Part shown: positions 3,348-22,437 of the stretch, piece by piece | How the letters are laid out: every line of letters begins with the position of its first letter | Numbering within the stretch: position 1 is the stretch's first letter | DNA from: Candidatus Eiseniibacteriota bacterium | Lineage (GTDB): Bacteria; Eisenbacteria; RBG-16-71-46; CAIMUX01 | Length of the DNA stretch: 64,000 nucleotides | Direction: 5' to 3' | Assembly: GCA_016712505.1 (NCBI GenBank) | Contig: JADJQY010000005.1 | Coordinates: 249,258-313,257, forward strand | The notes under the pieces: generated by a model | Databases searched by the model: none | Told to the model about the DNA's origin: nothing | The model's input: the letters and a program-made list of their open reading frames with translations, nothing else | Position numbers and translations under genes: made by a program

Positions 3348-3443
3348 GGCGCGCTTGGAGGCGCAGCCCGGGGCGACCGCGAACAGCAGGGCGATCCAGA
3401 CCGCACCAGCGAGCGCCGGGAGCGCCCGGGGATCGCGACTGAA

Positions 3444-4538: not shown

Positions 4539-4645
4539 GTGGTCGCGATTATTGAAGTCCGTCCCGCTCCCTTCAACCTCAATCTCAGCGGGCCTGGATT
4601 GAACCGCCCGCGGTGGCGCTGGGCGCCTGTCGGGGAGGGAGGAAA

Positions 4646-5836: not shown

Positions 5837-5844
5837 GGCGATCT

Positions 5845-7107: not shown

Positions 7108-8237
7108 CGCGCCCCTCCGAGCTGGGCCGGCTCGACGTCGCGATAGAGGTCGGCCACCCGAGCACTCATGGCGTCGGCCCGGAAACGGCGGTCGAAACGT
7201 TCCCGGCCGGCGCGTCCGAAGCGCGCGCGCAGATCCGGGTCGGAGAGGAGACGCCCCAGCGCCCGGGCCAATCCGGCGGTATCCCCGGCCGGCACGAGGA
7301 GGCCGGTCTGCTCGGGGTCGATCACCTCCGGCACACCGAACACCGCGCTGCCGACACAGGGAAGTCCCGCCGCCATCGCCTCGAGCAACGTGAGCGGCAT
7401 TGACTCGACCAGGGACGGAAGAACGAAGAGGTCGAAGGCATGCATCGCGCGAGCCGCATCCGCGGCCGGACCGGCCAGGCAGAGGCGGTCCGAGATGCCG
7501 AGCTGTCTGGCCTGCGATTCGAGCTGTGTCCTCTCCTCCCCCTCGCCGATGATCACCAGCCGCCAGGCGGGCTGGTGGTCGCGGAGTTGGGCGCAGGCCT
7601 CGAGGAGCAGGTGCTGCCCCTTACGCCGGGTGAGAGCGGCCACGTTTCCCACCACCAGATCGTCCGACCCCACGCCCCAGGACGAGCGCCGGGCCGCACG
7701 CTCCTCGGCCGAGAAGGGGGCGGCGGCATTCACCCCGTTGTCGATGATCCGGATCTTCTCGAAATCCATGCCGTGGAGATCGACCAGGAAGTCTCGGTTC
7801 TGTCGGGTCATGACGATGATGCGATCGATCCAGTGGGAGAAGAACACCTTGGTCGGAAACTTCCGGTACTTGCGCTCGATCATGGGCAGGTGCTCGGTCG
7901 AGACGACGCGGGCATATCCCGCCTCGCGCGCCGCCCAGGCCACGGACGAGACCCCGGCATCGTACGAGCTTGGGAGGTTGAGATGAAGCACATCTCCTCC
8001 CACCGCGCGAAAGCGCCGGACCATGCGGGGCAAGCGGGGAAGCCAGGAGAAGCCGGGACGCTCCAGCTCGTGGACCCGGACCCCCTGAGCGGTCAAGAGT
8101 GCCCGCAGCCGCTCCGCTCCCGGATCCGGGGGTAGGACGGCGGTCAGGGTGAACCGTTCGCGGTCGAGATGCTCGGCCAGGAGCGCGAGATACATCTCCG
8201 CCCCGCCAAAGTAGAGGGCATCGGAATAGAGGGTCAC
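7104..8237 (-). CDS. glycosyltransferase family 4
   Basis: RVTLYSDALYFGGAEMYL with a C-terminal GT4 domain (VGNVAALTRRKGQHLLLEA...). The ORF is open up to 8375. The start was placed at GTG 8237 to avoid overlap. Confidence 0.6.
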   Translation of the reverse strand: MTLYSDALYFGGAEMYLALLAEHLDRERFTLTAVLPPDPGAERLRALLTAQGVRVHELERPGFSWLPRLPRMVRRFRAVGGDVLHLNLPSSYDAGVSSVAWAAREAGYARVVSTEHLPMIERKYRKFPTKVFFSHWIDRIIVMTRQNRDFLVDLHGMDFEKIRIIDNGVNAAAPFSAEERAARRSSWGVGSDDLVVGNVAALTRRKGQHLLLEACAQLRDHQPAWRLVIIGEGEERTQLESQARQLGISDRLCLAGPAADAARAMHAFDLFVLPSLVESMPLTLLEAMAAGLPCVGSAVFGVPEVIDPEQTGLLVPAGDTAGLARALGRLLSDPDLRARFGRAGRERFDRRFRADAMSARVADLYRDVEPAQLGGAR

Positions 8238-8269
8238 GCGCAGCGGCGGTGAAAGGGTCTCAGCTCCGC

Positions 8270-9814
8270 TCACGGTTGGGGCCCCGCATCCGATCGGGGG
8301 AGCACCCAGACGTCGATCCCGGTGAACTCCCGGGTGCGCTCCGGCGGATGCTGCTCCGCCATCCACCGTCGCCACTGCCCGGCCGGATCGACCGCCTCGG
8401 CGCGGAAGACGATCACGTAGGTCCGCGGGTGGGCCGCGATGAGCGAGTCGAAACGGGCGAATTGCTGGGCGCGCGTCAGCATCCCCCAGTCCCCCAGATC
8501 GGCCTTCCGGATTCCGTCCGCGCCGCGACGCATACCCCGCCAGTGGTACCGTTCGAACGGTTCGTCCGTGCCGACCACGAAGAGCAGCTCACCCGGCTTC
8601 GCCTCGGACCGCAGGAACGCCGCGGCGGCACGCGCGTCGTCCTTGTCGTACCGGGGATCGGTGAAGTAGCGCCCCAGACTGACCCCGGTGGGAACGAGGA
8701 TGCACAAGGCCAGCAACCAACGCCAGACGATGCGCCGTGGGGCCAGGAGACCGAGCGCGAGCAGAACCACATACGCGGGGAGCGCGGCTGCCGCGTAACG
8801 CGGGTTGAACACCTTGAGGTTTCGGAGCGCGACGAGAAAGGTGAGCAGGGTCGGCAGGAATGCCAGGAGCAACCAGTAGCGTCCCTCGCCCCGAAGTCGC
8901 CAGGCAGCTCGCCCGCCGAGGAGCACCGCTCCACCGAAGCCGATCATCGCCGCGAGCAAGAGGGGGAGATCGGGCCGGAAGAGCTCGAATCCCATCCCCT
9001 GGCGCAGCTCACGCAGGCTGGGACCGAGGGAATAGCCGACGGAGAAGACGAAGTAGGTGAACGGAATTCCCAGCCACGGGGCGGTGGTCTCCCCCCGCAA
9101 GCGCTCGGTCGCCTCGATCGGCGCGAGATCGAGCGCGCCGGAGGGCTCGAGATGGCGCACCCAGAACCGGTAGATCCAGGGTGAAAGGGCCAGCGCGGTG
9201 ATCCCCCAGCTGACCAGCGCGAGGCGCCGGATCCGTCGCTGCGTGGCCCACTCATACCCGGCCTGGATCATCACCGCAAAGAGGTGGGCCAGATTGCTGA
9301 GGAAGCCGAACAGATTGGCCAGGGTGTAGAGCGCCCCGCGCCCCCCCCCGGCCGGCAGATGAAGGTACGCACCACTCGAGAGCACGACGAAGAAGATCAG
9401 GAGCGCGTAGTTGCGGATCTCCTGCGAGTACCAGAGATGAAACGGGGACACCGCGAGCAGGCCCGCGGCGAGCAAAGCAGGAGCTCGATCGAGGCGCGGC
9501 CGCACCGCCCAGTAGAGTAGCGGCACGGTCGCGGCACCGAAGAGGGCCGAGAGCGAACGGAGTGCCGCCTCCCCCGTGCCGAAGAGCCGCGACCAGAGAT
9601 GGAGGAGCAATGCGTGAAGCGGGCCGTGGAGATTCTCGAACCACTGATCCCAGCCGAATCGGCCGAAGACCGCGGCATACTTGATGCTGAAGGCTTCATC
9701 CACCCAGACCGACTGCCGCGCCAGCGCGAAGAAGCGAAGCCCGAACGCAATCAGCGTGAGGCCGAGCAGGATCCGGCCCTCACGGGTCGAATGCCGCGCC
9801 CGTTCCTGCGGCAT
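8270..9814 (-). CDS. glycosyltransferase family 39 (ArnT/PMT-like polyprenyl-phosphate-sugar dependent transferase), multi-pass membrane protein
   Basis: ILLGLTLIAFGLRFFALARQSVWVDEAFS...AVSPFHLWYSQEIRNYALLIFF, typical of the GT39/GT83 N-terminus. Many predicted transmembrane segments. ATG at 9814 is preceded by GGAAGGAGAG. Confidence 0.65.
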   Translation of the reverse strand: MPQERARHSTREGRILLGLTLIAFGLRFFALARQSVWVDEAFSIKYAAVFGRFGWDQWFENLHGPLHALLLHLWSRLFGTGEAALRSLSALFGAATVPLLYWAVRPRLDRAPALLAAGLLAVSPFHLWYSQEIRNYALLIFFVVLSSGAYLHLPAGGGRGALYTLANLFGFLSNLAHLFAVMIQAGYEWATQRRIRRLALVSWGITALALSPWIYRFWVRHLEPSGALDLAPIEATERLRGETTAPWLGIPFTYFVFSVGYSLGPSLRELRQGMGFELFRPDLPLLLAAMIGFGGAVLLGGRAAWRLRGEGRYWLLLAFLPTLLTFLVALRNLKVFNPRYAAAALPAYVVLLALGLLAPRRIVWRWLLALCILVPTGVSLGRYFTDPRYDKDDARAAAAFLRSEAKPGELLFVVGTDEPFERYHWRGMRRGADGIRKADLGDWGMLTRAQQFARFDSLIAAHPRTYVIVFRAEAVDPAGQWRRWMAEQHPPERTREFTGIDVWVLPRSDAGPQP

Positions 9815-9867
9815 TGGCTCTCCTTCCGGTGGAAAGCTAGGGGCGAGGGGAGACCTGCCCGGAGTCC

Positions 9868-10932
9868 TCAGTAGGCGCCCTCCCCGCTCACGACGGCAGG
9901 GATCGTACGGATCAGGATCGCCAGATCCAATGCCAGACCTTGGCGATCGATGTATTCCATGTCGAGGCGCATCCACTCGTCGAACCCGATGCGACTCCGG
10001 CCGCTGATCTGCCAGAGGCAGGTCAGGCCAGGCCGCACCGAGAGGCGGCGGAGCTGCCACGGCTCGTACTGCAGCACCTCGTCCGGAATCGGAGGGCGCG
10101 GTCCGACCAGGCTCATGTCCCCCACGAGGACGTTCCAGAGCTGCGGGAGCTCATCCAGGCTGCTGCGGCGCAGGAATCGCCCGACGCGCGTGATGCGCGG
10201 GTCCGAGGCGATCTTGAAGACCGGGCCATCCGCCTCGTTGCGGTGCAGGAGGTGGTCGCGGTAGGTGTCGGCACCCACCACCATCGAGCGGAACTTGTAG
10301 AAGCGGAAACGACGCCCGCCGCGCCCAACCCGCCAGGAGCAATAGAACGTCGGCCCGGCCCCCTCGATGCGAATCGCCAGGGCGATCCCCAGGAACAGCG
10401 GCGCGAGCATGAGGAGAGCGAGCCCGGCAGCTGCGGCATCGAACCAGCGCTTGCCGAACCGCTGATAGAGGCCTCGCTCCGGGTGCAGGGGAACGTTTGG
10501 GAGCTCACGCGTGGTCGCGCGGCCCGCCTCCGCATCCGCCGTCGGCCCGCCCAGGATCGCGGCATTCCGCGAGGCGGGAGTCCCGGTCCCGGCGGTCGCG
10601 ATCTGACCGCCGGACGCGGCGGCTGGCGCGCCGGCAGAGCCGCGCGAAGGGCCGGGAGAAAACGGAGTTCCTCCCTCGGTCACAGTTTCACCCGCGCCGA
10701 GTCGGGACGACTCCAGCGCCGCGCTCCCCTCCCGGGCAAAGGCTCCGGTCGGGACCCGGTCCGGGGTTCGGTGCAGGCTCAAACCGCCCACCTCTCGATC
10801 TTCACCCCGATCGGGTACTGCTCCCTGGTACGCGAGGTCCACCCCCTGGTTGCTGCTACTTCTGGGTGTCTGCCCGAGGCTGGCCGAGGCGACGGGGGGC
10901 CAGACTCGCGTCCCCGGACGCCCTTGCCCCAC
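9868..10932 (-). CDS. polyprenyl glycosylphosphotransferase (Bac_transf family sugar transferase), initiating enzyme
   Basis: [22 protein letters not shown]...[12 protein letters not shown]...[21 protein letters not shown]. Preceded by a Gly/Ala/Pro-rich N-terminal region. The true start may lie further downstream. Confidence 0.75.
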
Positions 10933-11020
10933 CTCGAGCGGGTGGATGGAAGAGACGCAAAAATCCTAGCACAGCGCTTTCCAGGATGGCAAACCCTGTA
11001 CGGAATCGATTGTTGAGTGG

Positions 11021-12526
11021 TCAGGAACTGGCCGATCGGGGCCGCAAGATCGGCTCGAGAGCGTCCGCCGCCCCCTCGTCGGTCGCAGGCGGCGGCCCTT
11101 GTTTCACCAGTCGCGTGGCCACCACCGCCAGGGCGAAGAGCATCCACATGAGGTAGACGTAGACGTTTCCCCGCTGGTGCTCGTCGCGGATCTGGGCCAC
11201 GGCGAACATCAGAACCTGCAGGTGAAGCACCGCCTGGGCGGCAGAAGCCATCGACCCCCGGACGAAATTCACCCGGGTTCGAGGCCGGCTGACCCAGATC
11301 ACCTTGCCGATCAGCCAGACAAAGATCATCAGCCCCACGAACCCGGTGGTATAGAAGTAGAAGAGATAGGCGCTGTGGGGCCAGTAGACCACCCCACGCC
11401 CTCCCTTCAGGTCGTAGAACGGCCCGTGACCGATCCAGAGATGGTCGGGGATCTTCCGCAGGATCGCGGTCCAGGCCTCGATCCGCGTGTCCGGGATACC
11501 GCGCTGGAACTGGGTGTTCGCGATGCGGCCGAAGAGGGTGAGGCGGGAGAGCCACTTTCCGGTGATCGCCTCGAGGGACAGGCTCCCCACGACCAGCACC
11601 GGCACGGCGAGGGCGATCTGATCGAAGCGCAGCCGTTCGCGCTGCAGCCACATGTAGTAGAGCCCGCCCAGGACCCAGATCGCCGCGCCTCCGCGGTTGA
11701 CCGACAGGGCGATCATGACCAGGCAGAGAACGCACAGGCTGCCGTACCAGACCCGGTGGGATGTCTTGGTCGCCCGCCGCGCCTGGGTCAGGTGGAGGTA
11801 GAACATCATCGCGCTGTAGTCGGCCAGCAGCCCGTGGAACCCAAAGATCCCGCCGATGCGCCCCCCCGTCGCCGTACTGTGCCCTCCGCGATAGAGGAAC
11901 CACTCCGGAACCAGCTGGTACCCCTTGCCGAAGAACTCGACCAGCGCGGTGACGAAGATGAACCCGCTGGTGATCGAAAGGGCGCGCAGCACTCCCGCCA
12001 GCTGATCCTCGGTGCGGATGCCGTTCACCAACAGGACAAAGAAAACGATCCCCGCGACCAGGAACTGCATCACCCCGAGCCCGTTCATCAGGCCGAAGGT
12101 CGAATCGACGTTGATGAACGAGAGGGCGTGGATTCCGAGATAGGCCCAGATGGCCCAGTCGATCGGTGTCCGGACCGGTCGGGACGCGCGGCCAAAGGTC
12201 ATCTGGACCAGCCAGACGAGCATGAGCAGGCCGAGGAAGAGGACGTTGGTGTCGGCCAGGAAGATGAAGGTCGGCACCACGAAGATGACCGAGAAGAGGG
12301 CGAGCGAACGGGCGAGCGGAAGGCGCGTCACCGCCAGGAGGAAGAGGAGACCGGCCCCGAGCTTGAGGTAGCGCGGAGTGAGGCTGAAGAACTGCGATGC
12401 GACGAACGCGCCCAGGAGCAGGGCGAGCGGAACGGTCACCCACGAGCTGAAGATCAGCTCGTGGATCGGGCGGGCGTAGCGAATTCTCCGGTTCACGCTC
12501 CCGTTCATTCCTCGTCCGTTTCGCAT
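11021..12526 (-). CDS. O-antigen ligase / polymerase family protein (Wzy_C domain)
   Basis: About 10 transmembrane segments and a periplasmic loop with WIGHGPF...HSAYLFYFYTTGFVGL (Wzy_C-like motif). Confidence 0.65.
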   Translation of the reverse strand: MRNGRGMNGSVNRRIRYARPIHELIFSSWVTVPLALLLGAFVASQFFSLTPRYLKLGAGLLFLLAVTRLPLARSLALFSVIFVVPTFIFLADTNVLFLGLLMLVWLVQMTFGRASRPVRTPIDWAIWAYLGIHALSFINVDSTFGLMNGLGVMQFLVAGIVFFVLLVNGIRTEDQLAGVLRALSITSGFIFVTALVEFFGKGYQLVPEWFLYRGGHSTATGGRIGGIFGFHGLLADYSAMMFYLHLTQARRATKTSHRVWYGSLCVLCLVMIALSVNRGGAAIWVLGGLYYMWLQRERLRFDQIALAVPVLVVGSLSLEAITGKWLSRLTLFGRIANTQFQRGIPDTRIEAWTAILRKIPDHLWIGHGPFYDLKGGRGVVYWPHSAYLFYFYTTGFVGLMIFVWLIGKVIWVSRPRTRVNFVRGSMASAAQAVLHLQVLMFAVAQIRDEHQRGNVYVYLMWMLFALAVVATRLVKQGPPPATDEGAADALEPILRPRSASS

Positions 12527-12532
12527 CCGGTC

Positions 12533-13576
12533 TCAGTCCCGCGCCGGCCCCTCGAGGCCTGGCCTTCCCGCCTCGGGCGCCTGCTTGGTTATCGACCCGG
12601 TTTCCGCCGGGCGCGAGGACGAGATACCCGGGACTTCCTTCAGGCTCACCTGCTCCAGGGCGAAACAGAGGAGCCCGACTGCGGTCGTCGGGATCCACTG
12701 GCTGGCGTGGTAGATCAGGGTGAAGGTCAGCGCGATCGACGGATCGACTCCGTACGGCTTGAGCGCCAGGGTTCCGGCGTACTGCAGCGTGCCGACGAAC
12801 CCGGGGGCGGACGGGACCATGGTTCCGATCGCCATCACCACCAGGACGACCACCCCAGCCTCGGCCGGAAGATCGAGATCGAGCGCGCCGAAACAGAGCA
12901 CCACCACCCCGATGAGCGAGGCCCACATCGCGACGGAGAGCAGCAGCGCGGCCAGCATGGCGCGAGGGTGGCCCAGGACGCCGAGACCATCGCGAAAATT
13001 CCGGGTGATCTCGAGGGCCCGCGTTCGGAGGCGCTCCGGCGCGAACCGTTCGACCAGCCGAAGAAAGATCCCCGGGCGGACCTTGAGCAGCACCAGCAGG
13101 GCGTAGATCGGGGCCGAGACGGCGACCAGATACCCGCCCCACCCCCGGACCGCCTCCGGGAGGCGGTGCGAAGCGAGCACCAGCGCGAACAGCCCGAGCA
13201 GGACGAAGGTGTCGAAGAGGCGCTCGATCACGATCGAGGCCAGCGCGGAACTCCGGCTGATGCCGGCGCTCCGACCCACCAGGTAGGCGCGCCACAGTTC
13301 CCCCAGACGCGCCGGAAAGAGATTGTTGCCCATGAATCCGATCATGGTGGCATTCCACAGGGGGCGCATCCCGATCGGGCGGACGGTCAGGAGCAGGAAG
13401 CGCCAACGCCAGGCCCTCAGGAAGTAGGCGGCCATGGTGAGGACCACGGTAGCCAGGAGCAGGTCGAGCCGCACGCGCTGCAACGCAGCCAGCACCTCCC
13501 CGAGCTGCGCGTTCCGGAACGCGAGCCAGAGAAAGAACGCGCTGAGCAGCGTCCCGATCAGGAGTTTCGTCTTCAC
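12533..13576 (-). CDS. flippase-like / lysylphosphatidylglycerol-synthase transmembrane-region (UPF0104) family membrane protein
   Basis: LRAWRWRFLL and GNNLFPARLGELWRAYLV motifs. Multi-pass membrane protein. Confidence 0.6.
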   Translation of the reverse strand: MKTKLLIGTLLSAFFLWLAFRNAQLGEVLAALQRVRLDLLLATVVLTMAAYFLRAWRWRFLLLTVRPIGMRPLWNATMIGFMGNNLFPARLGELWRAYLVGRSAGISRSSALASIVIERLFDTFVLLGLFALVLASHRLPEAVRGWGGYLVAVSAPIYALLVLLKVRPGIFLRLVERFAPERLRTRALEITRNFRDGLGVLGHPRAMLAALLLSVAMWASLIGVVVLCFGALDLDLPAEAGVVVLVVMAIGTMVPSAPGFVGTLQYAGTLALKPYGVDPSIALTFTLIYHASQWIPTTAVGLLCFALEQVSLKEVPGISSSRPAETGSITKQAPEAGRPGLEGPARD

Positions 13577-14736
13577 CCGGCCTGTCCTATCGAGCCGATC
13601 TCGCGTCGCAGCAACGCGTGGATCCCCGCCAGGTCGGTCGGCGGATCGAGGTCACGGCAATTGCTGAGCAGCGTGGTGTACATGCTGGCATCGTTTGGAT
13701 GATACCCGTGCATTCCCCGCACCGGCTGCCCGGACATGAACGAAGGAACGAGAATCTCTCCCTCGCGGAGCAGGAAGATCGCCTCTCCGTAATCGGCCTC
13801 CGGAAACCAGGCACGTTCAGCGCGGAGCTCTCGCTCATCGAGCAGGCGACCATAGGGTAGTTCCGCCAGCAGGGCGAGCACCGCACGTCGGGCGGCGTCG
13901 GTCCCGAACCAGAAGCGGGCCATCGTGCTGTCGAGGAAGAAGAGGAAATCACGCGGCACGGACAGTCCGAGCCGATCGAGACGCGACCAGAGATCGTGCG
14001 TGGCGGAGACTTCGGCCATTCCGTGGTCGCCGAAGGCAAAGGCGCGCACCTCTCGGTACCTGCGCCGCGCAGCCACAAGCAGGTCTCGCATCCGTCGCTC
14101 CAGTGAGGCCAGACAGGCCGCGGTCGCCTCACCCTCCGGGCCGTGCGCGTGCATGGTGGCGTCGAGTTCGGCGCTGTAGAGAAAGAGAACCGGGCGCTCG
14201 CCGCGATCGATCTCCTCCCCCAGCTCGGCGAAGGCGCGGGCCTCCGGCACCGTCCAGTTCCAGAGTCGACCTCCCGCCGCGGCCACGAGGTCGGCCAATC
14301 CGAGGTGCGCCCCGAATCCTCCCGGGGAGAACACATCGTGGCGTTGCGACAGGTCGAACCGCGAGAGGAGCGAGAGCGGCACCTCGTAGAGTGAGAAGTA
14401 CCCGGTGACCCCGGCGCGGCGGAGCGAAGCGGCGGCCCACCTCCGCAGCGTCCACTGCCGCCCGGTCATCCCGGAGAGAGGCCGGAGCCACCAATCGAGC
14501 CGGGAGAACACCCCGTCTCGTCCCGCGCGCCGATACATCGATAGATGCCGGTGCTCTTCGGGCAAGAGCCCCGACATCAGCGTGGGCAGGGCGGCACTCG
14601 AGTAGCCGAGGACGCTCCTGACCGGGTGCCGGGCGGAATCGAACTCGGGAAGAAACGCGTGAGATCCGGCCTGGGTGTAGCCCAGCGCGTCGATCAGAAA
14701 GATCAGCACCAGCCGTTCGGACACAGGTCTCCTCAT
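13573..14736 (-). CDS. nucleotide pyrophosphatase/phosphodiesterase (NPP, type I phosphodiesterase / alkaline-phosphatase superfamily)
   Basis: LIFLIDALG, SSAALPTLMSGLLPEEH (nucleophile-loop motif), GDHGM and GMHGYHPND. Confidence 0.65.
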   Translation of the reverse strand: MRRPVSERLVLIFLIDALGYTQAGSHAFLPEFDSARHPVRSVLGYSSAALPTLMSGLLPEEHRHLSMYRRAGRDGVFSRLDWWLRPLSGMTGRQWTLRRWAAASLRRAGVTGYFSLYEVPLSLLSRFDLSQRHDVFSPGGFGAHLGLADLVAAAGGRLWNWTVPEARAFAELGEEIDRGERPVLFLYSAELDATMHAHGPEGEATAACLASLERRMRDLLVAARRRYREVRAFAFGDHGMAEVSATHDLWSRLDRLGLSVPRDFLFFLDSTMARFWFGTDAARRAVLALLAELPYGRLLDERELRAERAWFPEADYGEAIFLLREGEILVPSFMSGQPVRGMHGYHPNDASMYTTLLSNCRDLDPPTDLAGIHALLRREIGSIGQAG

Positions 14737-14752
14737 GGCAGCCTGGGCCGCC

Positions 14753-15862
14753 TCAGGGCAGCGCAGGCAAGCGTTCCGCGCTCGCCGCCTCCGGTGGCAG
14801 TTCGCGTCCCATCCAGCGCCGGGAGTATGCGTTCCACTCTTCGTCGGGCTCTGCCCAGTAGCGCAGGGCCAGGGCGAGGCGCCGGAGCTCCGGAGTGGCG
14901 ATCGGATCTCCGTTCAGCATGCAACGGCCCAGGACGCGCATCGCCCCCCCCTCCCCCGGACGCAGGCGAAAGTGATCCCGCCAGGCCCGCCAGAGATCCC
15001 GGAGCGCGAGCTGATCGCGCAGCACGATCCGTTCCCGGGGCAGATCCGGAGATTCCATCAGCACCCGGCGCAAGGCAAGCCGATAGGGCTGGAGCGTCGA
15101 GAAGTCCGGGCCGGAGGATTCGGGCTGTTCGAAGTACCGACCGGCCAGCCGCGCGAGTTCGCCCACCGAATCCGGGGCGGGCACCTGGCCGATCAGCCGC
15201 AGGCGGTTCCGCTGACCGACGCAATAGGCGCCGCGAAAGACCAGCCAGGCGGTCCAGTTCGCCGTCAGGGCCTTGGCCAGGGCGTGCGTGAACCGGGCAT
15301 CGCTGCGGGGATCGGTCCCGTGGTCTCTCTCCCGCTCGGCCGACGCACTCCAGAGTTCAAGCGCGCGGTTACCCAGCAACCTGAACCCCTCGTAGGCGGG
15401 GATTCGGGCCGGAGCCGGCGCTACCAGGGGCAAGAATGTGCCCGGGCGCGACCAGAGAATCGTCCCCGCCGTCACGAGATCACACCAGCCGAGGGTAGGA
15501 GCCTGGCGCCCGAGGGCGGCGGTCGGATAGATCCCGATCGTCAAGTGGGGATCCCCGTCCTCGAGCAAGGTGTCGGCGGCATGCTGCGCGGCGCGACGCA
15601 AGGCGGTCGACGGCCAGTGGTCGACGATGAACGCCAGATCGAGGTCGGAGAGTACGACCGGGACGGGCCCGATCCGGCCGAGCGCCTCGCCGGTCGAGGC
15701 GCTCCCCCCGAGGTAGATCGCACGCACGGCGCACGGTTCGAGTGCCGCCGACACGGGACTCAGGGCGCGCGCGAGCACCTCCCGGCAGCGCTGATCGACC
15801 CACGCTTGGTGAGAGAACGGCTGTTCGGGGAGGGTCCAGGCGGAGAGAAAGCTGCGCGGCAC
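14753..15862 (-). CDS. uncharacterised protein with an N-terminal pol-beta-type nucleotidyltransferase motif
   Basis: YLGGSASTGEALGRIGPVPVVLSDLDLAFIV matches the hG[GS]...D.D pattern of minimal nucleotidyltransferases. The remaining roughly 250 aa is unassigned. Confidence 0.45.
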   Translation of the reverse strand: MPRSFLSAWTLPEQPFSHQAWVDQRCREVLARALSPVSAALEPCAVRAIYLGGSASTGEALGRIGPVPVVLSDLDLAFIVDHWPSTALRRAAQHAADTLLEDGDPHLTIGIYPTAALGRQAPTLGWCDLVTAGTILWSRPGTFLPLVAPAPARIPAYEGFRLLGNRALELWSASAERERDHGTDPRSDARFTHALAKALTANWTAWLVFRGAYCVGQRNRLRLIGQVPAPDSVGELARLAGRYFEQPESSGPDFSTLQPYRLALRRVLMESPDLPRERIVLRDQLALRDLWRAWRDHFRLRPGEGGAMRVLGRCMLNGDPIATPELRRLALALRYWAEPDEEWNAYSRRWMGRELPPEAASAERLPALP

Positions 15863-15878
15863 GCGAGCCTGGCCGCGG

Positions 15879-16655
15879 CTACAGACGACGGTAGATGAAG
15901 CCTGGGATCGAATAGCGGCGTTCGTTGAGGACCACGCCGAGGGCGCGCCCGCGGGCCTGATTGATCAGCCGGATCGCCTTCTGCACGATCTCGCGTCGCG
16001 TTCGGTTGGCCCGCACCACCAGCACCATTCCGTCGGTGCCGGCCCCGATCAGGCCACTCTCCGGAGCGAAGAGCAACGGCGAGGTGTCGAGGATGGAAAA
16101 GGCGTAGTGGCGATCCACCTCGCGGCGGAACGCGCCGAGTCGCTCCGAGGAGAGGAGATCGAGCGGCGAACCGGCATTCGAGCCTCGAGGCAGGAAGTGG
16201 AGATTGGCCAGCTCGGTGGAGCGCACCGCCTCCTCCAGGCGAGTCTTCCCTTCGAGCACGTCGGAGAAGCCGAGCCCGTCGGCCGCTTCCTTGAGCGCCC
16301 CGGAGAGGCTTCTCGGGTATCCGGCGATGTCCGCGTCGACCAGCAGCACCGGCCGCTCTTCCCAGTGCGCCAGCTCCCGGGCGAGAAGCAGCGCGAGGGT
16401 GCTCGATCCCTCCCCGGGCACCGCGCCGCTGAAGGCGACCATGCAGGAGCGGGTGGTATCGAGTTCGAGCAAGATCCGCTGGCGGAGGCCCTCGATCTCC
16501 AGTTCGCGGGTCCCGCCAACACCGCGCACCTTTGCACCTCCGGCAAGGGCCGCGCCGCGTCCGTCCCGCGGGGTCAAGGGCTCGAGTGGACCCTCAGCCG
16601 GCGGCCGCTTGCTCCCCGCTCCTCCCTTCTCCAGAGCATCGTAAATGTTGCTCAT
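15879..16655 (-). CDS. BY-kinase-like (CpsD/ExoP C-terminal type) P-loop ATPase, PEP-CTERM-locus tyrosine-autokinase-like
   Basis: SGAVPGEGSSTLA (Walker A without the canonical Lys), LLVDADI (Walker A' region), VVLNERRY...IYRRL C-terminal tail. The start ATG overlaps the upstream TGA (TGATGA). Confidence 0.55.
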   Translation of the reverse strand: MSNIYDALEKGGAGSKRPPAEGPLEPLTPRDGRGAALAGGAKVRGVGGTRELEIEGLRQRILLELDTTRSCMVAFSGAVPGEGSSTLALLLARELAHWEERPVLLVDADIAGYPRSLSGALKEAADGLGFSDVLEGKTRLEEAVRSTELANLHFLPRGSNAGSPLDLLSSERLGAFRREVDRHYAFSILDTSPLLFAPESGLIGAGTDGMVLVVRANRTRREIVQKAIRLINQARGRALGVVLNERRYSIPGFIYRRL

Positions 16656-17503
16656 CAGGTGCTCCGGTAGAAGGAGGCGGTGGGCGCATTCTCCGCGACC
16701 CAATCGAGCTCTCGCGCCGCTTCGCGCACATGGTCGGCCGTGATCTTCTCCGCACCCTTGACGTAGCCGACGAGAAGCGAGCGGTCGCAGATCTGGTTGA
16801 TCAGGCGGGGCAGGCCGGCCGACTGGCGGCCGACTTCCTCCACCGCGCCGAAATCGAACAGCCCCGTGACCCTTCCCTGGCTGGCGACCGCGAGGCGGAA
16901 GTCGATGTACTCGCGCACCGCCTCGCCCGGCAGGCGGGAGAGATCGTAGACCCCGGGGATCCGCTGCCGCAGCTGGCGCAACGAGTGACGCCCGAGCAGC
17001 GTGCGCAGCTCCGGCTGGCCGACGAGCACGATCTGGATCAGCTTGGTGTTGGCCGTCTCGAAGTTTGAGAGAAGGCGGAACTCCTCCAGCGACTCCTCCG
17101 AGAGGTTCTGGGCCTCGTCGATGATGAGCACCGCGTTCCCCTGCTTGTCCCGCATCCGGAGGAGGAACTGCTGCAGGGCGAGGAGCAGGTCGACCTTGCT
17201 CCGGCCCGCAGGCTGCACATTGAAGTCGAGCAGCGCGAGATAGAGCAACTGTTTGAAGTTGAGCCGCGCGTTCATGACGATCGCGGTCTCGATCTCCTCG
17301 GGAAGCTGCCCGAGCAGGGTCCGGATGAGCAACGTCTTTCCCGTCCCCACCTCGCCGGTGAGGGCGAGGAACCCCTTCCGCTGTTCGATCCCGTAGTGCA
17401 GGTAGGCCAGCGCATCCCGGTGGCTGCGGGTGAGGAAGAGAAACCGAGGATCTGGGGTGATCGAAAACGGCGACTCCTGCAGCCCATAGTATGACTCGTA
17501 CAT
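16655..17503 (-). CDS. ExeA/GspA-like AAA ATPase (PEP-CTERM-locus putative secretion ATPase type)
   Basis: Walker A GEVGTGKT and Walker B LIIDEAQNL. Confidence 0.7.
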   Translation of the reverse strand: MYESYYGLQESPFSITPDPRFLFLTRSHRDALAYLHYGIEQRKGFLALTGEVGTGKTLLIRTLLGQLPEEIETAIVMNARLNFKQLLYLALLDFNVQPAGRSKVDLLLALQQFLLRMRDKQGNAVLIIDEAQNLSEESLEEFRLLSNFETANTKLIQIVLVGQPELRTLLGRHSLRQLRQRIPGVYDLSRLPGEAVREYIDFRLAVASQGRVTGLFDFGAVEEVGRQSAGLPRLINQICDRSLLVGYVKGAEKITADHVREAARELDWVAENAPTASFYRST

Positions 17504-17515
17504 CTCGCCCTCCCG

Positions 17516-18898
17516 TTACCGCAGCTTCCCGACCGAACCCAGAACCGGCAGCCGCAGGTGTGTTTCCACCTCGGTGGCGTCCTTCAGGGAGTGATCGAGC
17601 CCGTCGAGCAGGAATGCCAGGGCAAATCCGACGAAGAGCGACAGGAGCGGAATCAGCGCCATGCGGACGATGTCATTGGTCCGCAGGGCGACCGCCTTCT
17701 GGGCAGCCTGCAGCACCAGGACGTTGTAGTCGGAAGTGCCGGTGCGTTCGATCCGAGCCTGGATCTGCTTCTCGACCAGCGCGTCATAGTCCGCCTGAAG
17801 CGACTTGAGCACGCGGTCGAACGAGGTCAGTCGCGCTTCCTTGGACGGAAAGCCGGACAGTTCGGAGTCGACGTAGTGCAGCGTGCCGAGCAGCGCCTCC
17901 TCGCGGGCCTTCAGCACCTCGACCTTCGACTCCAGGTGTTTCAAGTAGCTGTCCACTTCCCGCTTCAATTCCTTCTGCAGCTCCTCCATCCGGGTCTTGT
18001 GCCCGAGCACTTCCGGATGCTGCTCGGTGTACTGCCCAGCGGCGGTGAAATAGGCGGTCCGTTCCTGGATCAGTTGCCGCTTCACCTCCGCCACCGTCTG
18101 GTCGTCGCTGTTGTCCGCTTCGGAGAAGGGATAGACTTCGTAGTCCCCCTTGGCGCTGCCGCGGATGCGGGACCGCATCACCTCTACCTTGGCCTCTTCC
18201 GACGCGAGATCCGCGCGGACATCGTTCAGTTTCAGTTCGGTCGAACGACGCACCTCGATCAGGCTGGAACGCTCCTCCGAGATGCGCACGACCGACTCCT
18301 CCGCCATGAAGTCGGCCCGGCGCTGTTCCCAATCCTCGAGTTGCAGGCGCAGGTCTTCGATCTCTTCGCGGAAGAACTTGTCCACTTCAGGCACCGCGCG
18401 CACCTGCTGCCGGAACTCCGAGTAGGCCTGCGTGATGGCGCGGCAGCCATCGCGCGAGGCGATCGGATCGAGATCCTGATACTTGATGTAGATGACGCTC
18501 GACTTGCCGTTGATCGCCGCCGTGACCCGTCCGGGTTCGAGTTCCACCGGCTTGCCGTCCCCGCCGGTGGCGTGTCCCGCGTCGAGCAGCTTCTGGGCCA
18601 ACTCGATGATGTGACCGCTGGTCACGGTCTCCATCTCCGAGTTGAGTTCCTCTTCCCAGGAGAGGAGCGGCTTCATCCGGGAGGTGTAGGCGCTTTCGGG
18701 CTGGCCGCGGCTGACCAGCACGCGGGCGACCGACTCGTAGAGCACCGGCCGGGTGGCATTGAGCAGCGCCACCACTCCCAGCCCGGCCAGGAAAGCGGCG
18801 AACACGACCCACTTCCGCCGGAAGCAGACCGCCGCGAAGTCGCGGAGGCTCGCCTCGCGGGGAGTGTCGCCCTCTCTTTGAATGACTGCGCCGTCCAT
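17516..18898 (-). CDS. polysaccharide chain-length determinant (Wzz/PCP family) protein
   Basis: N-terminal and C-terminal transmembrane segments flank a long coiled-coil periplasmic region. The start was trimmed to the ATG at 18898. The stop codon is TAA. Confidence 0.65.
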   Translation of the reverse strand: MDGAVIQREGDTPREASLRDFAAVCFRRKWVVFAAFLAGLGVVALLNATRPVLYESVARVLVSRGQPESAYTSRMKPLLSWEEELNSEMETVTSGHIIELAQKLLDAGHATGGDGKPVELEPGRVTAAINGKSSVIYIKYQDLDPIASRDGCRAITQAYSEFRQQVRAVPEVDKFFREEIEDLRLQLEDWEQRRADFMAEESVVRISEERSSLIEVRRSTELKLNDVRADLASEEAKVEVMRSRIRGSAKGDYEVYPFSEADNSDDQTVAEVKRQLIQERTAYFTAAGQYTEQHPEVLGHKTRMEELQKELKREVDSYLKHLESKVEVLKAREEALLGTLHYVDSELSGFPSKEARLTSFDRVLKSLQADYDALVEKQIQARIERTGTSDYNVLVLQAAQKAVALRTNDIVRMALIPLLSLFVGFALAFLLDGLDHSLKDATEVETHLRLPVLGSVGKLR

Positions 18899-18935
18899 GA
18901 CTCTGGTTAACCCCGACTTCGTGTTCCCGATCGCC

Positions 18936-19820
18936 CTAGCGGAAAATCGTGCGCGAGGAGTTGACGTTGAAGGCGTTCCAACCCTCGAGGAAGAGGGTGA
19001 ACGGCGCGATGTTCTGCCGCATCCACTGATCGACGAAGACGTTGAGATTCCCGACGAAGGTCTTCGGTACGAAAATAATGTCGAAGGGGCGGAGCGGCAT
19101 ATCGGTCCGGGCGCCGCCATCGATCAGCGCCTGCTTGAGGTCGAGGGAGAACACCTCCGCGCTCTCCGCGCCGGTCCTGCGGATCACCACCACCTGATTC
19201 TGCTTGCCGCTCGACTTGAACCCACCCGCCTGGGCCAGGGCCTGCAGCGCGGTCATCCCCTTGTGAAACTGATGGTCGCCGGGGATCTCGACCTCCCCCA
19301 TGACGTAGACCCGCTGTTCACCAAAGGTATTGACCATGAGCTGACAATCGGGGAAGCGCAGGATCCGCCCGAGCTTCTGGCGAATCTCCTGCCCCACGTC
19401 GTCCGCAGTCCGGCCGAGCGCGAATATCGTTCCTTCTACTCCCGGATAAGTGAACGACCCGTCGGGGAGGACGCGGACCGCGCGGGAGAGATCGGGCTGC
19501 CCGACGACCAGGACGGAGAGTTCGTCCCCAACGCCGATGAAGTAACGCTGCGTGGTGTCCGCCTCGGCCGGCAGGGCAACCGGGGGCTTGATCTCGGACC
19601 CGGAGGCATCGGGTCCCTCCTCCCCGGGCGACGGCTCCTCGATCCCCGGCTCCCCCGGCGAGGGCGGCGTGGGGTCGCGATACGGAGACCGCGGCGCGTC
19701 GGGAGAGACCAGCGGGGGAAAGTCCCGCTGCGGCTCGGGCTGGTCCTGGGCCGAGCCGAGTGCCGGCGCGAACAGGAGCGGCATGAGGGTGCACAGGATC
19801 AGGAGCACGAGCGTCGACAT
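18936..19820 (-). CDS. polysaccharide export protein (Wza-like, Poly_export + SLBB domains)
   Basis: Signal peptide MSTLVLLILCTLMPLLFAPALGSAQ, then YFIGVGDELSVLV and SFTYPGVEGTIFALG, followed by an SLBB-like region. First gene of the operon. The stop codon is TAG. Confidence 0.7.
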   Translation of the reverse strand: MSTLVLLILCTLMPLLFAPALGSAQDQPEPQRDFPPLVSPDAPRSPYRDPTPPSPGEPGIEEPSPGEEGPDASGSEIKPPVALPAEADTTQRYFIGVGDELSVLVVGQPDLSRAVRVLPDGSFTYPGVEGTIFALGRTADDVGQEIRQKLGRILRFPDCQLMVNTFGEQRVYVMGEVEIPGDHQFHKGMTALQALAQAGGFKSSGKQNQVVVIRRTGAESAEVFSLDLKQALIDGGARTDMPLRPFDIIFVPKTFVGNLNVFVDQWMRQNIAPFTLFLEGWNAFNVNSSRTIFR

Positions 19821-19874
19821 CCCTGTAGGGGTCGCGTCGAAACGTCGAGCGCATGGGGAGACAACGCCCGCGCA

Positions 19875-19886
19875 TTGCGCGCGCAA
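19875..19886. promoter_or_regulatory. perfect 12-bp palindrome TTGCGCGCGCAA in the EPS-operon upstream region
   Basis: Lies about 55 bp upstream of the Wza start codon in a 280-bp non-coding region. Possible regulator operator. Confidence 0.25.
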
Positions 19887-20098
19887 CGCCTTCCCCCGGC
19901 GGCGCCTCCCATCCTTGGAACGGGCCATGCTTCGAGATTCCTGCGGTGATTCTCAACCCTTGCGACGCGCTATCGAACGCCGCAAAGCAATGTCGTCGGC
20001 TCGAACGCGGGGGACCTCACGATCCGGGCACGCTAGCAAAGCGCCCGGCGCGACGTCAACAATCCCCAAGCGGGCCAACCTCTTGATCGGCGCGGCGC

Positions 20099-21076
20099 TC
20101 ATCCACCTTGAGCCTCCACGGCCGAACGGCCGGGGCCGGGGCGACGCAGTATCACGTGACAGAGCAGGGGAAGCAGGATCTCGTGATGACCGATCAAATA
20201 ATAGCCACGCCCCACCCCGCGCGTCGGTCGCTCGACCACGTTCTGCGCAGGGCGGTAATGGCGCTGGAAATCGAACACCGCGGTGGTCAGGTCGGTGAAG
20301 TGCGTGCCGAGGTTGGTGGCCACCGATACGGCCTTGAGGAACACCTCGGGGAGCAGGACCGCCGAGCCGAGGTTGAGGGCGACCCCCCGGGCAAGTTCGA
20401 CCACCTGCCGGGTCAGGATCCGGAAGTCGCGCGCGCTCGCCTCCCCCGCAGCCGCCCCCGAGAAGCTCGGGTGCTGTTGGTTGATGTCGGTCCCGATCGA
20501 GAGATGCACCGTCGCGGGCACCCCCAGCCGGTAGGCCGACGCGAGCAGGCTCAGCTGCACGTTCGGCGGCGCCGCCTCGAGAAACGCCCGGCCGAGCCCT
20601 TCTCCCAGCCCTTCCTCTCTCCGCGCGGCCTCCACCGTCCATTGGTTGAGCCAGAGCGAGGTTTCCCGCGCCATTCCGAAGCGCCCCTCGGGGAGATGCG
20701 CTCCCACGTCCTCCGACGTCTGCCCGAAGAAGGCGATTTCCAGATCGTGGATCGCCCCCGCCCCATTGAGGGCGAGCGCAGTGATCCACCCTTCCTCCAT
20801 CAGCCGGATGAGACCGGGGGCCAGCCCGGTCTTGATGACGTGCGCCCCGGCCATGACCAGAACGCCCGCGCCGGCTGCGCGCGCCGTTGCGATCCGCTCG
20901 ACCAGATCGCGGAGTTCGCGCGCGGCGAGCAGATCGGGGAGGGAGTTCCAGAAGGCCTCGAAGGAGTCGAGATCGGCCGGCGGATGGTACATCTGCTCGG
21001 TCGCGACCTTGCTCGCCCGTTCGGCCACCGGGTAGGTGCGCACCCGCGAGAGATCGACTTCCTCGTAACGTGACAT
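20099..21076 (-). CDS. deoxyhypusine-synthase-like family protein
   Basis: [40 protein letters not shown] aligns with the eukaryotic DHS block [49 protein letters not shown] is similar to IPVFSPALTDGSLG. Confidence 0.45.
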   Translation of the reverse strand: [325 protein letters not shown]

Positions 21077-21925: not shown

Positions 21926-22404
21926 GCCGGCTCCGGCCGCGGGGTAGACGCGACCCCGGTATGTCCGAATCCGCCGTCGCCCCGCGCGGTATCGTCGAGC
22001 GTGGCGACCCAGCGAAAGCCGACCGGCGGCACCTGCTGAATGATCAGCTGGGCGATGCGGTCGCCGTGCTGGAGCACCAGGTCCTCGGTTCCGAGATTGA
22101 CCAGGAGGACCAGCACCTCCCCACGATAGTCGGAGTCGATCGTGCCTGGTGCGTTCAGCACGGTCACGCCGCGCTTCAGAGCCAGCCCGCTGCGAGGGCG
22201 CACCACCCCTTCGAACCCGGAGGGGATGGCCATCATCAGGCCGGTGGGCACCGCGCATCGTTCCCCCGCGCGGAGGGTCAGCGGCTGCTCCAAGCACGCC
22301 GCGAGATCGAAGCCACTGGCCGCCTCGGTCATGCGCGACGGGAGCTGAGCGCCCTCACGGCAGGGAAGGCAGAGCACTTCGGCCCGAGGCTGATTCGATT
22401 CCAT
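21922..22404 (-). CDS. dut: dUTP diphosphatase
   Basis: GFDLAA, RSGLALKRGVTVLNAPGTIDSDYRGEV, GDRIAQL and GFGHTG motifs. Confidence 0.9.
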   Translation of the reverse strand: MESNQPRAEVLCLPCREGAQLPSRMTEAASGFDLAACLEQPLTLRAGERCAVPTGLMMAIPSGFEGVVRPRSGLALKRGVTVLNAPGTIDSDYRGEVLVLLVNLGTEDLVLQHGDRIAQLIIQQVPPVGFRWVATLDDTARGDGGFGHTGVASTPRPEPA

Positions 22405-22437
22405 GTCAGGCACCCTCCGCCACCGCACGCCCGGCAA

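Follow-up and report, generated by a model that had tools for sequence, protein, structure and literature searches.

Phosphodiesterases of the NPP type, for example the snake-venom phosphodiesterase, cut 5'-nucleotide diesters, take AMP off adenylylated tyrosine and serve as exonucleases and pyrophosphatases. Among nucleotidyltransferase-fold proteins, HalB of the Hailong system makes a tyrosine-primed poly-dA that controls the membrane protein HalA, which is a precedent for a nucleotide polymer as a signal from this fold (PMC13434031), and LicD, FKRP and fukutin build phosphodiester-linked glycan decorations (PMC11666461). The output of exopolysaccharide (EPS) is controlled post-transcriptionally by the published STAS systems (PMC4517449; 10.64898/2026.04.08.717354); a direct action of partner-switching modules on EPS enzymes has been reported (bioRxiv 10.64898/2026.04.08.717354), and SypA, a STAS protein, still has no known target (PMC4517449).

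Organization of the locus

In the stretch of Candidatus Eiseniibacteriota DNA analysed here (64,000 nucleotides, hereafter the window), a nucleotidyltransferase-like gene (X) and a phosphodiesterase gene (the partner) had been predicted to lie side by side within an EPS operon, between a tyrosine kinase gene and a membrane-protein gene. The coordinates and strand given for both genes proved exact, and Pfam and NCBIfam scans bore out their placement between the two neighbors. The features are as follows.

8270-19928, minus strand: surrounding Wzx/Wzy-type EPS operon (Pfam and NCBIfam scans)
18936-19928, minus strand: OPX (Pfam/NCBIfam)
17516-19120, minus strand: PCP (Pfam/NCBIfam)
16655-17503, minus strand: AAA ATPase (Pfam/NCBIfam)
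15879-16703, minus strand: stand-alone BY-type tyrosine autokinase, directly upstream of X (partial matches to TIGR03018/TIGR01007)
14753-15862, minus strand: gene X, GTG start, 369 aa, cytoplasmic MNT/ANT-type nucleotidyltransferase-fold protein
15635-15712, minus strand: nucleotidyltransferase signature of X, residues 51-76, L-G-G53-S54-x3-G58-E59-(13 aa)-S72-D73-L-D75-L
15539-15547, minus strand: third-acid strand of X, His106-Leu107-Thr108, no acidic residue at either in-register position
13573-14736, minus strand: partner gene, ATG start, 387 aa, cytoplasmic NPP-fold phosphodiesterase of the alkaline-phosphatase superfamily
14599-14601, minus strand: partner nucleophile Ser46 at a helix N-terminus, S/T invariant in 38 homologues
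12533-13576, minus strand: LPG_synthase_TM/flippase-like membrane protein, GTG start (PF03706, E 6e-57; TIGR00374)
11021-12526, minus strand: Wzy_C (Pfam/NCBIfam)
9868-10932, minus strand: phosphoglycosyl transferase (Pfam/NCBIfam)
8270-10060, minus strand: PMT_2 GT-C (Pfam/NCBIfam)
146-8375, after the EPS operon genes: three GT4 genes and sugar-nucleotide genes (Pfam/NCBIfam)

The operon is ordered OPX, PCP, AAA ATPase, BY-kinase, X, partner, flippase-like protein, Wzy_C, phosphoglycosyl transferase and PMT_2 GT-C, and the GC content of the pair is on par with that of the surrounding DNA. There are 16 nt between the kinase stop and the X start, and likewise between the X stop and the partner ATG, while the partner stop and the GTG start of the membrane protein share 4 nt (GTGA). 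The gap sizes originally given for the pair were right, but the translational coupling read into them was not: strict coupling applies only to the 4-nt overlap of the partner and membrane-protein genes, and the 16-nt gaps indicate no more than tight operon packing. The label of a PEP-CTERM locus was also found to be weaker than had been assumed, with the AAA ATPase scoring 288.6 bits on TIGR03015, under the cut-off of 324.5, and the XrtA-type kinase, chain-length and export models scoring far under their cut-offs (NCBIfam scan). A crude regular-expression search found no PEP tail within the window, and no STAS, PP2C or RsbW-like gene adjoins the pair there. Neither X nor the partner has a 19-residue hydrophobic window above 1.6, and both, assigned to the cytoplasm, are free of export signals.

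Gene X encodes an ANT/MntA-like nucleotidyltransferase fold

X has a full-length match of 100% identity in a Candidatus Eisenbacteria MAG, deposited as a "hypothetical protein", and all members of its family, with 2,569 cluster representatives at 50% identity, are annotated as "hypothetical". No Pfam, NCBIfam or PADLOC model describes X. In the Pfam profile search the window protein matched neither PF01909 nor PF18765, and weak matches to these models were obtained for 7 and 5, respectively, of 73 distant relatives (best E 1e-4). The minimal-nucleotidyltransferase motif read in the original prediction (GGSAS...SDLDL) is real. It runs LGGSASTGE, a 13-aa stretch that holds a family-specific insertion, and SDLDL, and contains the hG[GS] loop followed by [DE]h[DE]h in the next strand (L51-G-G53-S54 ... 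D73-L-D75-L); in a weak profile alignment it falls on G35-S36 ... D47-x-D49 of AadA. G53, D73 and D75 are invariant among 19 close relatives, and in the 73 distant ones G53 and D75 are invariant, D73 is present in 72, and D73, G58 and E59 reach 96% conservation or more. Even at an identity to X of only 19-36%, relatives keep G53, S/G54, G58, E59, D73 and D75 invariant or nearly so, together with D/E128, E158, N165, R166, K197 and R220. The motif is no chance match, and the invariance of the GS/GE/DxD residues and several other charged residues over such deep divergence argues for retained catalysis, not binding alone.

The structure model of X (pLDDT 88, pTM 0.90) has an alpha/beta nucleotidyltransferase fold, which places the protein in the Pol-beta superfamily as had been proposed. 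In the model, a nucleotidyltransferase domain (~aa 20-140) is followed by HEPN-like helices that form a second domain (~aa 156-230) and by further helices that extend the C-terminus (~aa 231-369), so that the claim of no other recognisable domain is correct at the level of sequence but not of structure; a nucleotidyltransferase domain with a C-terminal helical, substrate-binding domain is also the arrangement that marks the ANT family. In Foldseek comparisons, the model matched AadA (E 1e-4, TM 0.52-0.60 of target) and HalB structures (E 4e-4, TM 0.39-0.46 of target), and MntA-type nucleotidyltransferases were among the structural matches. HalB also appeared in the profile search with X (E 2.3), and an MntA model matched 2 of the 73 relatives (E 0.007). 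X therefore shares both its fold and its GS/GE/DxD nucleotide-Mg site with MNT/ANT-type nucleotidyltransferases, and the model suggests that it resembles the substrate O-nucleotidylyltransferases (ANT, MntA) rather than CD-NTases or GlnE, the comparison that the original prediction had called for.

Several other identities were considered and rejected. CdnG was not a significant Foldseek match (E 0.1, probability 0.2), and no PADLOC match supported a CD-NTase/CBASS assignment (the 2023 version used may lack Hailong). For GlnE/GlnD there was no Pfam match in X or the 73 relatives and no structure among the best fold matches. LicD/fukutin was set aside because PF04991 is absent from X and the 73 relatives and no LicD/FKRP structure is among the best fold matches, although X shares with LicD, FKRP and fukutin a nucleotidyltransferase fold encoded in glycan loci. 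A type VII toxin-antitoxin identity (MntA-HepT, HI0073/HI0074) does not suit X, whose two domains are fused in one chain of 369 aa and whose gene is linked to those of an NPP phosphodiesterase and of polysaccharide synthesis; X has neither a separate HEPN toxin nor the conserved Rx4-6H RNase motif, and its only R-x6-H match ends at His193, a variable column (Y31/H14/R14 of 73).

Even the nearest relatives differ from X in several respects. Identity to the aminoglycoside/lincosamide O-nucleotidyltransferases (ANT(3'')(9)/AadA, AAD(9), ANT(4')/KNTase and LinB) is only 9-17%, with no Pfam-level match, and compared with AadA/ANT, ~10 family-specific residues are inserted between GE and SDLD, another ~140 residues form an additional helical extension, and the context in every annotated locus is a polysaccharide operon instead of a resistance element. 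Like HalB, X has a nucleotidyltransferase-plus-helical fold and a membrane protein in its neighborhood. In contrast to Hailong, however, the structural match is weaker than that to ANT, no HalA homologue is apparent (by Pfam, the membrane protein here is LPG_synthase_TM), and the neighbors are a phosphodiesterase and a polysaccharide-synthesis operon.

A further difference from AadA concerns the third catalytic acid, whose lack had been named among the findings that would refute the original prediction. His106 of X aligns, in a weak profile alignment, to AadA Glu87, the catalytic base or third ligand of that enzyme; PDB entries of an AadA E87Q mutant were among the Foldseek matches listed. Position 108, Thr in X, is D/E in 107 of 166 sampled relatives and position 106 is Glu in 24 more, while neither is acidic in the remaining 35 (~21%). 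The acid is thus missing from this protein and a minority of the family and present in the rest, so this refuting finding applies in part, the catalytic competence of this copy is not assured, and X could be a nucleotide-binding pseudo-enzyme. Acids elsewhere in X (E59, D/E128, E158) are invariant or nearly so.

The partner is a cytoplasmic NPP-fold phosphodiesterase

The partner matched PF01663 with 41.2 bits against a cut-off of 23, and this family was assigned to all 120 partner homologues listed. In 38 homologues, position 46, where a helix starts, is S (T in one), and the metal ligands D16, D192, H196, D237, H238 and H343 are invariant. With its two-metal site complete and Ser as the nucleophile, the partner is a phosphodiesterase of the NPP fold, and the intact nucleophile loop of the original prediction is upheld. 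It differs from the NPP/ENPP enzymes (Xanthomonas NPP, ENPP4, ENPP6 and ENPP7) and from the phosphonoacetate hydrolase PhnA in being cytoplasmic, with no signal peptide, and in possessing its own invariant motifs (GYF-LY-P, DSTMARFW and YGE); in place of the Thr usual in NPP/ENPP, its nucleophile is Ser. The Phe that follows the nucleophile and the phosphoryl-oxygen-binding Asn of bacterial NPP are not evidently conserved, since the places of the aromatic residue and of Xanthomonas NPP Asn111 are taken by Ser47 and Met67 in a manual and HMM alignment of low confidence. As the base slot is not obviously conserved by manual alignment, the substrate need not be a nucleotide diester.

The pair is conserved in polysaccharide operons

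The partner immediately follows X in 22 of 24 X-seeded loci (13 of 15 non-redundant), which include a Myxococcota contig and rearranged operons. Conversely, among 80 metagenome loci seeded with the partner, 66 were informative, and 31 of these have X directly upstream; of the 30 flanked by at least 3 kb on both sides, 23 have X within 8 kb. The other 7 have no X, and a STAS gene precedes the partner there. In Lentisphaeria, a large clade of X occurs with no partner in the vicinity. The pair recurs in Eisenbacteria, on one contig labelled Myxococcota and on many metagenome contigs from soil and sediment, every locus with annotated neighbors is a polysaccharide operon and none a defence island, and in non-Eisenbacteria loci the pair lies among glycosyltransferases, Wzx and Wzy. 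Position and orientation of the pair are kept even in loci whose X is only 31-35% identical to that of the window. The gene-neighborhood check proposed with the original prediction thus came out in favor of the pair, whose genes lie side by side and are strongly conserved together in the polysaccharide operons of several phyla. A CDP-alcohol phosphatidyltransferase-like gene was also seen in L021.

The block of X, partner and membrane protein is constant in Eisenbacteria-type loci, where the BY-kinase is again directly upstream of X. The flippase-like protein directly follows the partner in L001, L004, L006, L008 and L022, is further downstream in L010 and L023, and is missing from the views of L020, L021 and L025. 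In the same genomes, X is 31-43% identical, compared with 54-67% for the partner, 51-78% for the flippase-like protein and 43-65% for the kinase.

In at least 15 of the 66 informative partner-seeded loci, a STAS gene occupies the slot of X, often overlapping the partner start, and RR-SpoIIE/HATPase_c_2 genes adjoin it. This resembles SypA/SypE of Vibrio fischeri and All4160/HenR of Anabaena, with STAS and RR-SpoIIE/kinase genes upstream of the partner in these sister loci, except that X itself has a nucleotidyltransferase and not a STAS fold. The two are not mutually exclusive, as both occur in L025, L062, L085 and L100; the order in L025, the locus of the most distant partner homologue, is STAS-partner-GT2-X. 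The "control" part of the originally proposed module gains indirect support from this replacement by a partner-switching regulator.

Possible functions of the pair

Since the pair travels together in polysaccharide loci of several phyla, it probably carries out a new nucleotide-based modification or control step. We tentatively prefer, at somewhat under even chances, the explanation that X and the partner are linked in function and act in the cytoplasm as a module of two enzymes, belonging to Wzx/Wzy-type loci, by way of a nucleotide phosphodiester that X makes by nucleotidylylation and the partner cleaves. By analogy, X would draw on an NTP to attach an NMP to a hydroxyl group in some component of the pathway, because this is, to our knowledge, the only chemistry of its closest structural relatives (ANT/Lnu on sugar hydroxyls, MntA/HalB on tyrosine). 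The acceptor would most likely be the lipid-linked repeat unit or, alternatively, an assembly protein such as the neighboring tyrosine kinase. The partner would next cut the phosphodiester in the canonical NPP reaction, which could either remove the tag, as a write/erase checkpoint before flipping and polymerisation, or leave the acceptor phosphorylated; the product is probably handled or docked, in Eisenbacteria, by the flippase-like protein whose gene is translationally coupled to that of the partner. Against nucleotidylylation, a writer and an eraser made from one transcript would run in a futile cycle unless they were regulated, and the fast divergence of X also fits a regulatory or adaptor role. 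The third acid lacking in this X, the partner loci and the Lentisphaeria clade in which one gene occurs without the other, and the base slot that is not obviously conserved likewise count against it. A more elaborate form, which we consider distinctly unlikely, is that X tags a hydroxyl of the lipid-linked repeat unit or of an assembly protein with a nucleotide or a short oligonucleotide, that the tag is trimmed by the NPP, and that its state replaces the STAS switch and gates the flippase-like protein; such an export checkpoint would be mechanistically akin to HalB-HalA, for biosynthesis rather than defence.

The fast divergence of X could instead mean that the partner, far better conserved, is the catalytic core and regulated control point of polysaccharide synthesis, with X as a regulator that senses nucleotides or nucleotidylylates the partner, as MntA does HepT. 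This is rather unlikely, though the best of the alternatives. The partner might hydrolyse nucleotide-sugars or a lipid-linked phosphodiester or pyrophosphate, or transfer a phospho-group through a Ser-phosphoryl intermediate, and X would have the role of the STAS protein in sister loci. The STAS and adjoining RR-SpoIIE/HATPase_c_2 genes in the slot of X, the gene order of L025, the third acid lacking in this X, its MntA-type structural matches, and the reports of partner-switching on EPS enzymes (bioRxiv 10.64898/2026.04.08.717354) and of a SypA with no known target (PMC4517449) all favor it. However, the invariant GS/GE/DxD and other charged residues argue for retained catalysis, Lentisphaeria have X without the partner, and STAS and X co-occur in four loci. 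Decoration with a phospho-substituent is unlikely: here an ENPP6-like partner would make or transfer a phospho-alcohol (of the phosphocholine, phosphoglycerol or phosphoethanolamine type) and X would be LicD/FKRP-like or make a CDP-conjugate. CDP-conjugates serve LicD-family enzymes in the synthesis of capsules and teichoic acids (PMC11666461), and the company of glycosyltransferases, Wzx and Wzy and the phosphatidyltransferase-like gene of L021 would suit this; but PF04991 is not matched, X retains the GS loop typical of NTP-using enzymes, and activation and transfer need more than two enzymes while no cytidylyltransferase is constantly linked.

A nucleotide signal was one half of the original prediction and is the weaker half, given the ANT/MntA-like fold and the lack of a PADLOC match. 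That X makes a nucleotide or (protein-primed) oligonucleotide signal which the partner degrades, and which gates the flippase-like or another assembly component, is very unlikely, and a diffusible second messenger is unlikely. The significant HalB match, its appearance in the profile search, the control of a membrane protein by poly-dA (PMC13434031) and the constant Eisenbacteria block with its translationally coupled membrane protein speak for a signal, as do the exonuclease and pyrophosphatase activities of NPP-type enzymes. Nevertheless, the TM-scores are lower for HalB than for ANT, the CD-NTase match is not significant, annotated neighbors are those of polysaccharide operons and not of defence islands, and the membrane protein is missing from Myxococcota and other distant loci with the pair. 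Finally, that an MNT-HEPN toxin-antitoxin-like cassette landed in the operon by chance as a selfish or defence insertion is extremely improbable in view of the constant position and orientation of a divergent X, the fusion of both domains with no separate toxin, the variable His193 in place of a conserved Rx4-6H, the absence of PADLOC matches and the matching GC content.

Wzx/Wzy pathways are well charted, yet the pair described here has neither a family model nor an annotation. Should a glycan intermediate or an assembly protein prove to be nucleotidylylated by X, polysaccharide biosynthesis would gain a kind of modification that it is not known to use, and the ANT/MntA type of reaction, familiar from antibiotic resistance and toxin control, would also serve envelope assembly. 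The partner, alternatively preceded by a SypA-like STAS protein, could be tested as the long-sought point at which partner-switching acts on the production of biofilm polysaccharides. Two new family models could be built, one for X and one for the cytoplasmic NPP subfamily with the DSTMARFW motif, and these would supersede thousands of "hypothetical protein" labels.

Organization of the polysaccharide operon

Pfam and NCBIfam scans showed a single long polysaccharide operon on the minus strand of the window, a high-GC stretch (about 66-70%) of a Candidatus Eisenbacteria MAG. The nucleotidyltransferase-fold product of 369 aa, hereafter X, matches a deposited 'hypothetical protein' with 100% identity.

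Genes of the polysaccharide operon in the window
18936-19928, minus: outer-membrane export protein
17516-19120, minus: chain-length protein
16655-17503, minus: AAA ATPase
15879-16703, minus: BY tyrosine kinase
14753-15862, minus: X
13573-14736, minus: phosphodiesterase partner
12533-13576, minus: LPG_synthase_TM protein, flippase-like
11021-12526, minus: Wzy_C polymerase/ligase
9868-10932, minus: phosphoglycosyl transferase
8270-10060, minus: PMT_2 GT-C
beyond the PMT_2 GT-C gene, minus: three GT4 genes, then GDP-mannose and other sugar-nucleotide genes
3444-4835, minus: ManC-type GDP-mannose pyrophosphorylase, downstream of the glycosyltransferases
2568-3347, minus: 259-aa protein without a Pfam match, downstream of the glycosyltransferases
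1407-2567, minus: NTP_transf_4 sugar nucleotidyltransferase, downstream of the glycosyltransferases
146-1213, minus: GalT/HIT-like nucleotidyl transferase, downstream of the glycosyltransferases

The 16-nt spacers of the original prediction are seen in the sequence on both sides of X, and the partner and membrane-protein genes overlap at a GTGA. Mechanically called ORFs start too far upstream in this high-GC DNA in the cases of the phosphoglycosyl transferase, chain-length and PMT_2 genes, whose true starts are probably internal. The phosphoglycosyl transferase ORF, of 354 aa with its domain at 161-348 (homologues 191-279 aa), shares ~190 nt with the PMT_2 ORF, and the chain-length ORF shares ~185 nt with the export gene. 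The ArnT/PMT-like GT-C shares the operon with the flippase-like LPG_synthase_TM protein, a combination reminiscent of periplasmic glycan-modification systems made of three components (lipid-linked donor, flippase, GT-C). A GT2 polyprenyl-phosphate glycosyltransferase is absent from this operon, whereas a GT2 gene abuts X in loci L010, L023 and L025.

In all Eisenbacteria-type loci, genes for an M16 peptidase, a dUTPase, a DUF3108 protein and a 325-aa protein of ArgZ-like fold precede the polysaccharide operon (20099-23739, minus strand, in the window; also L001, L004, L006, L010, L022 and L023), and in L010 and L023 a PNPase gene can be seen upstream of M16 as well. The dUTPase gene of the window was located by tblastn at ~21934-22377 (minus strand), beneath an over-long 406-aa DUF3108 ORF call.

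Linkage of X and the phosphodiesterase

A genome scan with the narrower of two X alignments gave only 7 loci, all from close Eisenbacteria, and therefore the taxonomic breadth of the pair rests on metagenome contigs. Look-ups seeded with X gave 24 loci, or 15 after removal of redundancy, and the partner directly followed X in 13 of these 15, including a Myxococcota-labelled contig and operons of different gene order. The two exceptions have a Lentisphaeria-type order (phosphoglycosyl transferase, left-handed beta-helix (LbH) protein, X, export genes) with the partner not in view. The partner-seeded metagenome scan gave 80 loci at 31-45% identity; X was directly upstream of the partner in 31 of the 66 with at least 450 bp upstream, and within 8 kb in 23 of the 30 flanked by 3 kb or more on each side. 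When the most distant partner homologue (33% identity) was used as the seed, X was again present, in the order partner-GT2-X. All loci with annotated neighbors were polysaccharide loci, carrying genes for Wzx, Wzy, glycosyltransferases or export. The pair recurs whether X or the partner is the seed, and the co-conservation on which the original prediction depended is borne out. No X-partner fusion proteins were found among the best 150 X matches or the best 120 partner matches.

In Lentisphaeria/Victivallales, X proteins of ~350 aa form a large clade that lacks a nearby phosphodiesterase (L024:3857-6919, L019:2335-5408). There, X overlaps the end of the LbH gene (413-423 aa), which itself follows a small phosphoglycosyl transferase gene, and in L019 a SypE-like RR-SpoIIE-HATPase_c_2 gene and an Hpt gene lie upstream. 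This LbH protein was compared with the NTP_transf_4 gene of the window and is unrelated to it.

The phosphodiesterase is a member of the NPP family

The partner passes the PF01663 threshold, its structure model has a pLDDT of 95.5, and D16, S/T46, D192, H196, D237, H238 and H343 are kept in 38 homologues, down to 32% identity, together with the subfamily motifs GYF-LY-P, DSTMARFW and YGE. By profile, predicted active site and modelled fold it is a bona fide NPP family member, and its nucleophile motif is intact as originally described. Neither its sequence nor that of X contains a hydrophobic segment or signal peptide, and both proteins are therefore likely to act in the cytoplasm, a location unusual among NPPs. 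The partner belongs to a distinct, cytoplasmic NPP subfamily with a Ser nucleophile.

Family, fold and catalytic site of X

X has no sequence match in Pfam, NCBIfam, PADLOC or PDB. A word-indexed search gave only 19 relatives, against 2,569 cluster representatives with E <= 1e-3 (1,608 with E <= 1e-10) in an exhaustive profile search; all named members are called 'hypothetical', and a few distant ones match PF01909/PF18765 weakly. Across 73 relatives that share only 19-36% identity with X, three residues never vary (G53, D75 and R166), and conservation reaches at least 90% at L51, G58, E59, D73, E158, L162, N165, K197 and R220. The minimal-nucleotidyltransferase motif noticed at the outset is thus a conserved family signature (GS-x3-GE ... 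SDLDL), with a family-specific insertion of ~10 residues. Of the genes in the block 12533-16703, X evolves fastest, with 31-43% identity in shared genomes, in which the partner has 54-67%, the flippase-like membrane protein 51-78% and the tyrosine kinase 43-65%.

The AlphaFold model of X is confident (pLDDT 88.4, pTM 0.90) and matched AadA (Foldseek E 1e-4) and Hailong HalB (PDB 9dbi/9dbj; E 4e-4, significant), with only E 0.1 for CD-NTase. From the model and these matches, X is predicted to combine an MNT-type NTase domain with a HEPN-like helical domain in an ANT-like fusion that has ~140 further helical residues. Family membership tests rejected X as a CD-NTase, GlnE or LicD.

The third catalytic acid, whose loss was expected to count against the original prediction, is kept in most of the relatives compared and absent from the window copy. 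Position 108, located on the strand that follows the DxD strand, is Asp or Glu in 107 of 166 relatives, and 24 more have Glu at position 106, on which a weak profile alignment placed Glu87 of AadA. The other 35 lack an acid at either position, among them the window copy (His106, Thr108) and its 62%-identical neighbor. Other acidic positions (E59, D/E128 and E158) are invariant or nearly so. Judged from these alignments, the putative nucleotide-Mg site of X is under strong selection, but the window copy is a candidate enzyme rather than an assured one.

A STAS gene in the place of X

In at least 15 of the 66 informative partner-seeded loci, where X was not upstream, a STAS-domain gene lies directly upstream of the partner, often overlapping its start (for example, L064:7559-9155 and L025:7667-9152; also L091, L094, L095, L061 and others). 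Genes for a response-regulator-SpoIIE (PP2C) phosphatase and an RsbW-like kinase lie alongside, with Wzx downstream. STAS and X coexist in L025, L062, L085 and L100. Partner-switching modules are reported to act post-transcriptionally on polysaccharide output, and for SypA the target is still unknown (PMC4517449); in Anabaena, a fusion of STAS with a phosphoglycosyl transferase is reported to be under direct regulation (10.64898/2026.04.08.717354). Together with the gene context, this suggests by analogy that the polysaccharide pathway is regulated at the phosphodiesterase, on which SypA-like partner switching may act to control polysaccharide synthesis.

Possible roles of the pair

This work established both folds, the conserved sites, the cytoplasmic location and a tight and widespread genetic linkage inside polysaccharide operons. 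The reading that we tentatively prefer, by analogy and at somewhat less than even odds, is that X writes an NMP on a hydroxyl and the partner cleaves the resulting diester. X would move the NMP from an NTP; for its closest structural relatives no other chemistry is known, their acceptors being sugar hydroxyls for ANT and Lnu and tyrosine for MntA and HalB. The partner would then cut the nucleotide diester made by X. Such cleavage is the canonical NPP reaction, and the NPP-type snake-venom phosphodiesterase takes AMP off adenylylated tyrosine. The outcome would be either removal of the tag, as in a checkpoint, or a phosphate that stays on the acceptor.

Alternatively, the partner could be the main enzyme, with X regulating it as the counterpart of STAS; the slower evolution of the partner in shared genomes, the missing third acid in the window copy and the STAS gene as an alternative to X favor this possibility, which we consider a credible but rather unlikely one. 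A LicD-like pathway of phospho-alcohol decoration has a precedent in LicD (PMC11666461) and ENPP6 as the top match, but X has no LicD similarity, and this role is improbable. HalB is a tyrosine-primed oligo-dA synthase controlling a membrane protein (PMC13434031), and this significant structural match shows that the fold can also make nucleotide polymers; even so, we give a HalB-like or second-messenger signal a slimmer chance still. That the pair is a selfish toxin-antitoxin insertion, a class also rejected for X by family membership, is hardly credible.

By analogy, then, X would act most like an O-nucleotidyltransferase of the ANT/MntA type. However, it fails sequence-profile membership and is without the catalytic Glu of AadA, and therefore it is not filed as an ANT. 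As a unit, the pair corresponds to no system described so far: X is without a model in both Pfam (2025) and NCBIfam (2026), and nothing relevant was found in the literature on the pair or on an NPP in polysaccharide clusters. We therefore rate it as a variant of known enzyme kinds, with predicted chemistry; the target of the pair and the activity of the window copy of X are matters of inference. The pair occurs widely, carries no annotation, and hints at a modification or control step that may be new.
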